In this document: one piece after another, positions 4,557 through 6,155 of the stretch | Layout of the letters: the number at the start of each line of letters is the position of its first letter | Position numbering within the stretch: the first letter of the stretch is position 1 | NCBI GenBank assembly: GCA_964421485.1 | Contig: CAYQYG010000137.1 | Coordinates: 1 to 18,899 of the forward strand | Reading direction: 5' to 3' | Length of the DNA: 18,899 bases | Source: an uncultured Polyangiaceae bacterium | GTDB lineage: Bacteria; Myxococcota_A; Polyangia; Polyangiales; Polyangiaceae | Program-made: the position numbers and the translations under genes | The notes under the pieces: model-generated | The model's input: only the letters and a program-made list of their open reading frames with translations | The model's database searches: none | What the model was told of the DNA's origin: nothing

Positions 4557-6155
4557 ATGGCGCTGCGCGATCACCACCTCCTGCCGGACGCCCCGCTCGC
4601 GTCGTACGACGCATACTGCCGCGCCGCCGGGGAGAACGCGGTGCTGGCCGCGCGCGCGATGGGGCCGGACGCGGTCCTCGCCGAGGTGCACCGCTCCGGG
4701 CTCCGCGGCCGCGGCGGCGCCGGCTTCCCGACCGGCGTCAAATGGGCCTCGATAGCCGGCCACCCGTGCACCACCCGGTACGTCGTGTGCAACGCGGCCG
4801 AGGGGGAGCCCGGCACCTTCAAGGACCGCTACCTGCTCCGGAGGAACCCCTATGCGACGCTCGAGGGCGCGCTCATCGCCGCGCACCTCGTCGGCGCGCG
4901 CGAGATCTACGTCGCCCTGAAGGCCTCCTACGTCGAGGAGCTCGGCCGCCTGCGCGCCGCGGCGAGCGAGATCGCGGCCGCGGGGCTCATGAGCTACCAC
5001 GAGGTCCGCTTCGTCGAGGGGCCCGAGGAGTACCTGTTCGGCGAGGAGAAGGCGCTGCTCGAGGTCATCGAGGGCAACGACCCGCTCCCGCGCGAGGCGC
5101 ACTACCCGCCCTACGAGCGCGGCCTCTTCGCGACCGCGCGCTCGCCGAACCCCGCGCTCGTGAACAACGTCGAGACGCTCGCGCGCGTGCCGGGGATCGT
5201 GCGCGGCGGCGGCGAGTCGTTCGCGCGGCTCGGGACCCGCGACACGCCCGGCCCCCTGCTCTTCACGCTGAGCGGCGACGTCACCCGCCCCGGCGTCTAC
5301 GAGCTCCCCGCGGGCACGCCGCTCCGCCGCCTCCTCGACGAGGCGGCCGGCGGCCCGCGCCCCGGCCGCCGCTGGAAGGCCGCGCTCTCCGGCGTGTCCT
5401 CCGCGGTGATCCCCGCGGAGCGCCTCGACACGCCCGCCGATTTCGCCTCGCTGAAGCTCATCGGCGCCGGCCTGGGATCGGCGGGCTTCATCGCGCTCGA
5501 CGACGGCGCGAGCATGGTCCGCGTCGCGCAGGCCGTCGCCCGCTTCCTCTACGTGGAGTCGTGCAACCAGTGCTCGGCGTGCAAGCACGGCCTCGGCACC
5601 GCCTCCTCCGCGCTCGACGAGCTCTTCGATCCGGCGCTCGCCACCCCCGACGACGTCGGGCGCGCGATGCACGGCGCCCGCTCCGCCCCGCAGGGCAACC
5701 GCTGCTTCCTCCCCGCGCAGGGCGCGATCCTGATCCCGAGCCTCCTGTCCCGCTTCTCCGCCGAGGTGGCCGCCCAGCTCGCCGACCCCGCGCGGCCCTC
5801 GGCGCCCTACCTCATCCCCAAGATCGTCGATTTCGACGAGCAGACCCGCACGTTCCTCTACGACCTCGACCAGCCCCGGAAGCGCCCCAACTGGACCTAC
5901 GAGGAGCCCCCGCCGCCGCCCTCCGCCGGCCTCGCCGCCGACGCGCCGGCGTCGCTGCCGCCGCGATCGATCCGGCCCGTCTCGATGAGGCCCGCCTCGC
6001 CGGGCCGCCCCGCCGGGCCGCCGGCCGCGGTCCTGCTCGCCTCCGACGTGCGCGACGCCCTCGCCGCCGTGGCGGAGGCCCGCGGCGAGAGCGTCGAGCG
6101 CGTCGCGAACGAGGCGCTCCGCGCCTGGCTCGCGTCGTCGCGGACCAGGGCGTGA
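4557..6155 (+). CDS. NuoF-family (NADH:quinone oxidoreductase 51 kDa flavoprotein subunit family) FMN/NADH-binding 4Fe-4S protein. It stands alone and has a C-terminal Pro-rich linker and a ribbon-helix-helix-like tail.
   Basis: Hallmark NuoF motifs are visible directly: GLRGRGGAGFPTGVKW (the NADH/FMN site), CNAAEGEPGTFKDR, and the SLBB region NNVETLARVPGIV. The cluster ligand motif ESCNQCSACKHG (CxxCxxC) has its fourth Cys about 40 aa downstream (NRCFLP). After roughly residue 440 comes PPPPPSAGLAADAPASLPP..., followed by SDVRDALAAVAEARGESVERVANEALRAWL. This resembles the beta-strand plus two-helix pattern of CopG/Arc-type RHH domains. Confidence 0.85.
   Translation: MALRDHHLLPDAPLASYDAYCRAAGENAVLAARAMGPDAVLAEVHRSGLRGRGGAGFPTGVKWASIAGHPCTTRYVVCNAAEGEPGTFKDRYLLRRNPYATLEGALIAAHLVGAREIYVALKASYVEELGRLRAAASEIAAAGLMSYHEVRFVEGPEEYLFGEEKALLEVIEGNDPLPREAHYPPYERGLFATARSPNPALVNNVETLARVPGIVRGGGESFARLGTRDTPGPLLFTLSGDVTRPGVYELPAGTPLRRLLDEAAGGPRPGRRWKAALSGVSSAVIPAERLDTPADFASLKLIGAGLGSAGFIALDDGASMVRVAQAVARFLYVESCNQCSACKHGLGTASSALDELFDPALATPDDVGRAMHGARSAPQGNRCFLPAQGAILIPSLLSRFSAEVAAQLADPARPSAPYLIPKIVDFDEQTRTFLYDLDQPRKRPNWTYEEPPPPPSAGLAADAPASLPPRSIRPVSMRPASPGRPAGPPAAVLLASDVRDALAAVAEARGESVERVANEALRAWLASSRTRA

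Follow-up and report, generated by a model that had tools for sequence, protein, structure and literature searches.

A NuoF-like flavoprotein with a C-terminal ribbon-helix-helix domain in Myxococcota and other phyla: a possible redox-linked regulator

Introduction

A stretch of DNA of 18,899 nucleotides from an uncultured Polyangiaceae bacterium (contig CAYQYG010000137.1; the whole stretch is called the window here) encodes a complete protein of 532 residues in which a NuoF-like core is joined through a Pro-rich linker to a C-terminal ribbon-helix-helix (RHH) domain. The gene lies at 4557..6155 on the plus strand and ends with a stop codon at 6153-6155. Its cofactor motifs are intact, its tail takes the RHH fold in structure prediction, the fusion is conserved across phyla, and no partner gene is linked to it. 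To our knowledge, every NuoF-type module described so far serves as the NADH entry of a large complex, be it complex I, a bifurcating hydrogenase, Nfn or a formate dehydrogenase. The protein described here may be a redox-linked regulator of the PutA kind: a dimeric flavo-iron-sulfur protein that oxidises NAD(P)H and is held on DNA by its RHH domain. We put this reading forward tentatively and give it slightly less than an even chance.

A first-pass annotation, made from the letters of the sequence, had singled out the gene as an orphan NuoF-family flavoprotein with an RHH-like tail. Below, we lay out the evidence for the architecture and its conservation, weigh the possible functions against one another, and then describe the surrounding genes and the upstream region.

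The gene and its NuoF-type core

The window has a G+C content of 72%, and G+C by codon position was used to tell real genes from the many spurious open reading frames (ORFs). In the ORF at 4557-6155, G+C at the third codon position (GC3) is 0.98 overall and stays at 0.97-1.0 across the linker and the tail, so the tail is in-frame coding sequence. The ATG at 4557 is backed by a conserved N-terminus, 'M...H.LLPD.PY', in 28 homologous loci. With this profile and this N-terminus, the ORF that the first-pass annotation had drawn is a real gene, and the linker and tail sequences quoted there match the window. The public protein P0001, which comes from a metagenome-assembled genome (MAG) of a Polyangiaceae bacterium, is nearly identical (displayed as 100%) and differs by a single residue, PPRAIRP for the window's PPRSIRP. 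The window is a close variant of the public contig of P0001, a few single-nucleotide polymorphisms apart.

Three Pfam domains follow one another in the canonical order, all of them above their gathering cut-offs. The flavin mononucleotide (FMN)/NADH-binding domain, PF01512 Complex1_51K, covers residues 44-212 (4686..5192, plus strand; E = 3.3e-40; 137.8 bits, cut-off 31.2), and its confidence in the AlphaFold2 (AF2) model, as predicted local distance difference test (pLDDT), is above 90. It contains the FMN loop GLRGRGGAGFPTGVKW and the NADH-site motifs NAAEGEPGTFKDR and GEEKALLEVIEG. The SLBB domain, PF10531, follows at residues 236-272 (5262..5372, plus strand; 2.9e-9; 37.1 bits, cut-off 27), and the four-helix [4Fe-4S] domain of the N3 type, PF10589, at residues 323-406 (5523..5774, plus strand; 3.2e-7; 30.5 bits, cut-off 23.5). 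The cluster ligands C336, C339, C342 and C383 sit in the family-specific motifs ESCNQCSACKHG and APQGNRC, and their spacing, read from the sequence as C-x2-C-x2-C-x40-C, is the same as in NuoF. An alignment of 57 sequences shows L49-G54, G56, F57, K62, W63, N79, A81-R91, G162-E164 and all four cysteines to be invariant. The earlier assignment to the NuoF family, which had been made from motifs, is therefore upheld by the three domain models, the FMN and NADH motifs and the four cysteines together.

Behind the cluster domain lies an element of the family's own, residues 411-452 (5787..5912, plus strand), which consists of a beta-hairpin, 'IPKIVDFDE..F.YD', followed by 'K.PNWTY'. The hairpin strands, 423-427 and 432-435, have pLDDT values of ~93-95 in the AF2 model, and D425, F433, K442 and W446 vary little or not at all among relatives. 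The motif that ends the hairpin has the form 'K.PDWTY' in the family and 'PNWTY' in the window protein.

The full-length AF2 model of the window protein (pLDDT 90.4) superposes on chains of NfnB, FdsB, HydB and NuoF with a TM score of ~0.7 at 30-36% identity. The protein shares with NuoF/Nqo1/NDUFV1, HydB, NfnB, FdsB and HoxF the fold, the domain order (Complex1_51K, SLBB, N3 four-helix bundle), the FMN and NADH motifs and the C-x2-C-x2-C-x40-C ligands. It departs from them in several respects. NuoF has ESCGKC where the window family has ESCNQC, and APQGNRCYLP and the hairpin-PDWTY element are likewise family-specific. HydB, NfnB and FdsB carry a fused NuoE-like domain at the N-terminus and a ferredoxin domain at the C-terminus, whereas the window family is without both; among its long members, no NuoE-like (PF01257-type) domain was found. 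Moreover, the window protein has a C-terminal RHH domain, no NuoE partner and no nuo, hyd or fds neighbours, unlike NuoF and its paralogues. Its scores also fall below the cut-offs of the NuoF equivalog models (TIGR01959, 283.2 bits vs 558.65; NF010120, 226.6 vs 389). As judged from its sequence, it is a NuoF-family flavoprotein, but not an orthologous complex I NuoF.

The linker and the ribbon-helix-helix tail

The core is followed by a Pro/Ala/Ser-rich linker, residues 453-487 (5913..6017, plus strand), which has 10 Pro in 35 residues and a GC3 of 0.97. It is predicted to be disordered, with pLDDT values of 41-52 and residues 469-482 below 50; its length and sequence vary between homologues and cannot be aligned.

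The tail itself comprises residues 488-532 (6018..6152, plus strand), with the strand AAVLLAS, helix A at 496-509 and helix B at 513-531. When the 45 residues of the window's tail were modelled separately by AF2, the model had a pLDDT of 94.1 and showed an extended segment followed by two helices, at 9-22 and 26-44 in tail numbering. Foldseek against the PDB returned nearly all RHH proteins among the 50 matches listed, the best with TM scores of 0.7-0.88 and root-mean-square deviations of 1.1-1.5 A over 40-45 residues. The leading matches were CopA(SO), StnY, Arc (including the Arc-operator complex), CopG-DNA, VapB, TacA, AmrZ and the DNA-binding domain of PutA (2jxg).

Sequence relationships lead to the same fold, by way of the homologues. 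Of 58 homologous tails scanned singly, 16 match RHH_1, the best at 7e-6, and further Pfam matches among them are to HicB, CopG_antitoxin, Antitox_RHH, FitA, BrnA and Arc. Among PDB sequences, ParG (0.007), a CopG-family protein (0.017) and Arc (0.019) match a profile of the tails. The same profile has 467 matches among 1.84 billion representative proteins; the longer ones inspected are C-terminal fragments of the same NuoF-like family, and those of ~50-60 residues are stand-alone proteins, of which nine in a sample of ten fit Pfam RHH families, several over the RHH_1 cut-off. On the basis of structure prediction, fold search and this transitive homology, we identify the tail as a predicted RHH domain. 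The first-pass annotation had read the tail as RHH-like and had named a disordered or coiled-coil tail as the outcome that would speak against it; the confident beta-alpha-alpha fold and the profile links support its reading. Comparison with RHH, CopG and Arc models, which it had suggested, gives matches for part of the family tails (16 of 58 for RHH_1) and none for the window's own.

The 109 tails compared (see below) have conserved columns at V492, R493, L494, D497, G510, D514, V517, N518, L521, R522, W524 and L525. The hydrophobic core is strongly conserved, and the probably exposed positions R493 (Arg in 98 of the 109), D514, N518 and R522 are conserved as well. In the HMMER alignment of the tail profile to Arc, the R493 column aligns with Arg13 of Arc, which is known to read bases from the beta-ribbon in the Arc-operator structure 1PAR. 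By analogy with Arg13, R493 should be exposed to solvent; dimerisation alone gives no obvious reason for its conservation, which is therefore a hint of DNA binding. For the family as a whole, this correspondence of columns favours DNA binding by the RHH domain.

The tail resembles the CopG/Arc/ParG-type repressors and type II antitoxins of the RHH_1 clan in its beta-alpha-alpha fold, its profile matches, its G-x-(D/S) turn and its hydrophobic pattern. Those proteins stand alone or bear a toxin-binding tail, whereas the RHH domain of the window is fused to a redox enzyme of 450 residues.

Conservation of the fusion and absence of a linked partner

Among the best 120 homologues of the window protein (57-70% identity), 109 distinct RHH tails are present. 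A scan of one genome per species gave 58 loci, all in metagenome bins, from Polyangia and other Myxococcota, Planctomycetota, Verrucomicrobiota, Acidobacteriota, Chloroflexota and others. According to a hidden Markov model of the tail, a C-terminal RHH domain is present at 33 of 59 loci, in several phyla, and none of the tail-less copies has a separate RHH gene next to it. Over 100 distinct proteins share this architecture, and the tail is present in related orphans, as the earlier proposal of a fusion would have it.

Tail-less relatives stop just past PDWTY, and a few carry other modules, which are a C-terminal Usp domain in P0009, a predicted coiled coil in L042 and an N-terminal DUF5069 in L036 and L037. 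By such comparisons, the accessory module of the NuoF-like core is evolutionarily interchangeable. As a separate observation, the RHH-less members P0034, P0049, P0062 and L017, and P0087 and P0107, have alternative ends that include a conserved short peptide, 'EEGTTGPTSRRRDRLVGY', and a basic 'T(R/K)RKS.KKGKR'.

The precomputed Pfam annotations and source names do not mention the tail, and full-text literature searches returned no description of a NuoF-RHH fusion. The architecture is widespread and unannotated; both of its parts come from known families, and the logic of an enzyme with an RHH domain has a precedent in PutA.

The gene is monocistronic by its geometry, as claimed at the outset, since the upstream gene, a DUF5995 gene containing 'HINHD' (3258-4094, minus strand), is divergent and the downstream gene, a tRNA-like gene (6190-6264, minus strand), is convergent. 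No nuo, hox or fds genes are present in the window or in the 21.6 kb of the public contig, which agrees with the earlier statement that no redox partner lies nearby. Neighbours were further analysed at 59 loci, over as much as 10 kb to either side. Of the window's own neighbours, only Ser/Thr kinases recur near homologues, in 8 loci. When the flanking ORFs were clustered de novo, with antisense ORFs inside the gene set aside, the largest common family was again Ser/Thr kinases, in 9 of the 59 loci; such kinases are common in these phyla. No NuoE-, NuoG-, hydrogenase- or formate dehydrogenase (FDH)-like neighbour family is conserved within ~10 kb of these loci. Four annotated contexts are wholly different from one another, and none has NuoE, hydrogenase or formate-dehydrogenase genes. 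At all 59 loci examined the gene is therefore an orphan, with neighbours that are not conserved and without a NuoE-like gene or domain, and the orphan status that had been noted for the window extends to every one of them.

Proposed function and alternatives

If the protein is a redox-linked regulator, its soluble, stand-alone NuoF-type core would bind FMN and one [4Fe-4S] cluster and oxidise NAD(P)H, and the disordered Pro-rich linker would join this core to the C-terminal RHH domain. Because RHH domains fold only as dimers, a homodimer joined at the tail is expected. The RHH dimer would sit on operator DNA and, in most members, its two-stranded beta-ribbon would offer the conserved Arg to the major groove. 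Whether the protein is retained on DNA would depend on the FMN/[4Fe-4S] core and its redox or nucleotide state, for example, through another partner or surface or through docking of the tail, and the expression of target genes would track the ratio of NAD(P)H to NAD(P)+ or the damage done to the cluster by oxidation.

A comparable system is PutA, an RHH-anchored flavoenzyme that leaves its operators on reduction of its flavin, by gaining affinity for another surface (PMC5293562). A flavoprotein with a DNA-binding tail is therefore less unusual than the first-pass annotation had supposed, as the flavoenzyme-RHH combination already exists there. Trifunctional PutA resembles the window protein in combining a redox flavoenzyme with an RHH domain on a single polypeptide, and its RHH domain anchors the dimer (PMC5293562). 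The two differ in their catalytic parts, which are PRODH and P5CDH domains with FAD in PutA and a NuoF-type core with predicted FMN and [4Fe-4S] in the window protein, and also in the position of the RHH domain, which is N-terminal in PutA but C-terminal, behind a long Pro-rich linker, in the window protein. The proposed logic, in which gene control is tied to NAD(P)H/NAD(P)+ or to the state of an Fe-S cluster, would also be like that of Rex, SoxR with its Rsx reductase, FNR and NsrR. The sensor and DNA-binding parts of Rex, SoxR and FNR are not known to be homologous to the window protein, and the likeness is one of functional analogy only. RsxC, from the system that reduces SoxR, matches the window protein weakly and over its N-terminal part only (NF003454, 5.1e-15).

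Several observations weigh against a redox-linked regulator. The window's own tail has no Pfam match at E <= 10, and at position 493, where 98 of 109 relatives have Arg, it has Leu (CTG, 6033-6035). Leu occurs at this position in just three of the 109 tails, the window protein included, and the CTG codon is also present in the public contig. Both features set the window copy apart from CopG/Arc/ParG-type proteins, and with the reading-head Arg replaced by Leu493, its DNA binding may be weakened or retargeted. A disordered linker of 35 residues cannot pass an allosteric signal directly, so competition or docking, rather than direct allostery, would be needed for coupling. As for operators, the upstream regions of 27 tail-bearing loci share no motif once coding-sequence artefacts are removed, and none of the intergenic elements of the window is conserved at homologous loci. 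Phylogenetic footprinting in two subclades revealed a ~45-nt proximal block with a CACGTG core in one and a sigma-70-like promoter in the other, neither of which reaches the window. The Usp domain of P0009 and the coiled coil of L042 are dimerising modules in place of the RHH domain and fit a purely structural role. Finally, all structurally solved relatives of NuoF are subunits of complexes with a NuoE-type partner, and in this MAG the search for a partner covered a single contig, so that a NuoE-like partner may be encoded elsewhere in the genome.

In the main rival to the regulator reading, the RHH domain is a dimerisation or oligomerisation handle only. The protein would then be a stand-alone NAD(P)H:acceptor oxidoreductase (diaphorase) that needs two cores together for its activity or stability and does not bind DNA. 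RHH domains are generally known to be obligate dimers, other dimer-forming modules (Usp, the predicted coiled coil) occupy the same C-terminal place, and many family members have no extension at all; the lack of an operator upstream of the 27 loci and the missing beta-strand Arg of the window protein agree with it as well. However, a dimerisation handle would not select for R493 or for the conserved polar ridge D514-N518-R522, and the closest sequence relatives of the tail are DNA binders of the CopG, Arc and ParG types. Furthermore, a long floppy linker is poorly suited to fixing the geometry of two catalytic cores. We consider a handle without DNA binding to be rather unlikely.

A second alternative takes up the last two of the points listed above. 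The protein may be the NADH-input module of a dispersed multi-subunit enzyme (a hydrogenase, formate dehydrogenase, Nfn-like enzyme or other), whose NuoE-like and acceptor subunits lie elsewhere and in which the RHH domain is autoregulatory or incidental. Also in its favour, a NapH/NapG-like poly-ferredoxin and a DUF362 protein are encoded 10 kb away in the window. Yet these two genes are near no homologue; across the 59 loci, no neighbour family within 10 kb per side occurs in more than 9, and none is NuoE-, NuoG-, hydrogenase- or FDH-like; and the four annotated contexts also lack such genes. In addition, the family has its own hairpin-PDWTY element and is without the fused NuoE-like or ferredoxin domains of HydB, NfnB and FdsB. 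Gene context gives a dispersed enzyme no support, and it seems improbable to us, more so than the handle.

The last alternative, that the fusion is an artefact in which a NuoF-like gene and a small antitoxin-type RHH gene were joined by misassembly or a frameshift in a metagenome bin, can draw on the MAG source and on stand-alone RHH genes of very similar sequence, but it is excluded for practical purposes because the fusion is conserved in more than 100 non-identical proteins across independent assemblies and phyla, the reading frame and its GC3 of 0.97-1.0 run continuously through linker and tail, and tail-less loci have no separate RHH gene beside them.

Neighbouring genes in the window

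On the far side of the DUF5995 gene lies a gene for a protein of 584 residues (1349-3103, minus strand), which has a coding-type G+C profile and no Pfam, NCBIfam or PADLOC match; PADLOC gave no defence-system match either. The tRNA-like gene at 6190-6264 (Rfam tRNA, 50.8 bits) begins 35 nt past the stop codon of the NuoF-RHH gene. ARAGORN calls it tRNA-Tyr with anticodon ATA (A34), and the first two pairs of its acceptor stem are mismatched. It has a short variable arm, whereas bacterial tRNA-Tyr has a long one, and its G+C content is 54%, against 72% for the window. Possibly it is a pseudo-tRNA or is left over from an integration site.

Farther downstream, a protein of 938 residues (6455-9271, minus strand) matches the Pfam major vault protein (MVP) shoulder (4.5e-10) and the vault repeat domains Vault_3 (4.2e-8) and, weakly, Vault_4; on these matches, this myxobacterial genome seems to encode a bacterial MVP-like protein. 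The idea that the RHH tail is a cargo-loading peptide for this vault-like neighbour was rejected, as no homologous locus has an MVP-like neighbour and the tail is a folded RHH domain. None of the MVP-like, DUF5995, poly-ferredoxin and DUF362 neighbours is found at any of the homologous loci, and because none of the window's neighbours recurs near homologues, kinases apart, the vault-like gene is taken to be a coincidental neighbour.

The rest of the window encodes a CCA-adding enzyme, a Ser/Thr kinase, an FtsX/MacB permease, the poly-ferredoxin and the DUF362 protein. The gene for the NapH/NapG-like membrane poly-ferredoxin (579 residues, several 4Fe-4S motifs) lies directly downstream of the DUF362 gene. 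The two genes (together 15987-18696, minus strand) overlap, and given this overlap, their products are probably a redox pair.

In close contigs, a convergent ORF of 100-104 residues without a Pfam match lies directly 3' of the NuoF-RHH gene, and the window has no equivalent of it. It was located on the minus strand in L065 (7555-7869), L066 (2045-2359), L067 (3814-4128) and L068 (3492-3794). Its place next to the NuoF-RHH gene may be no more than local synteny.

The upstream region and the operator search

The divergent intergenic region (4095..4556) is 462 bp long with the start of the DUF5995 gene at 4094 and 522 bp with the NCBI start. The divergence from the HINHD gene across ~520 bp, as first described, is accordingly correct for one of the two starts and somewhat shorter for the other. 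The region contains a sigma-70-like site, TTAACG-18-TATATT (4415-4444), a GC-rich hairpin and a repeat of the TCGATC type. Rfam found no riboswitch or leader in it.

The hairpin, at 4131-4174, has 19-nt arms, paired at 17 of 19 positions, and a 6-nt loop; 0 of 60 shuffles reach it, and its folding energy in context is -51 kcal/mol (z = -3.2). It is positioned 37-80 nt upstream of the DUF5995 start, and inspection of a few close homologues did not show it in their upstream regions. The repeat, GGATCGATC/GGTTCGATC with 11-bp spacing (4288-4307), includes GATCGA-N7-TCGATC at 4289-4307. Both had been described as strong inverted repeats, and both exist; only the hairpin, of all the intergenic elements of the window, exceeds shuffled controls, and the repeat at 4289-4307 does not. 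An inverted repeat at 4378-4424 that overlaps the -35-like site was discarded as being at chance level, since 13 of 60 shuffles reach it.

Two further candidates for an operator were rejected. GCTGTAC and related words were enriched in a k-mer analysis (z = 13), but their positions are scattered and they are often Leu-Tyr codons in upstream coding sequence. Repeats of the TCGATC type, like that at 4288-4307 in the window, occur at few loci, and the counts are too low for an enrichment of tail-bearing over tail-less loci.

In the subclade nearest to the window (P0003, P0006, P0008 and a Byssovorax MAG), the start codon is preceded by ~45 nt of nearly the same sequence, and the sequence farther upstream is unalignable. 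This block, GGGCGATC(A/G)CGTGGTTA(C/G)CTG.GCGC.CCATG, stands just before the ATG in L065 (5955-6003) and is also found in L067, L068 and L004. With its CACGTG core, it may be a promoter, a leader or an operator, and it is absent from the window.

Significance

That a NuoF core is conserved without a partner, and with a C-terminal hallmark of its own, suggests that such a module can stand by itself. A stand-alone core of this kind bears on the evolution of modular enzymes and on the question of what stabilises NuoF without NuoE.

A broader proposal is that these proteins form a one-component redox sensor class, not described before, in which a complex-I-type NADH/FMN/[4Fe-4S] module, a NuoF without NuoE, is wired directly to an RHH domain, reads NAD(P)H/NAD(P)+ or oxidant damage to the cluster and sets transcription, and which would be found widely across Myxococcota, Planctomycetota and neighbouring phyla. 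We regard this as possible, though with more doubt than we attach to the regulator reading of the protein itself. Almost all that is known of such phyla comes from metagenomes. With a small, soluble protein whose tail can be separated, the proposal is directly testable. If the tail does bind DNA, the family would join PutA as a second, independent case of a flavoenzyme that is also a transcription factor, with a different set of cofactors. The regulatory biology of Myxococcota and Planctomycetota is poorly known, and if the proposal is true, it would offer a testable route to NADH and redox sensing in these phyla.

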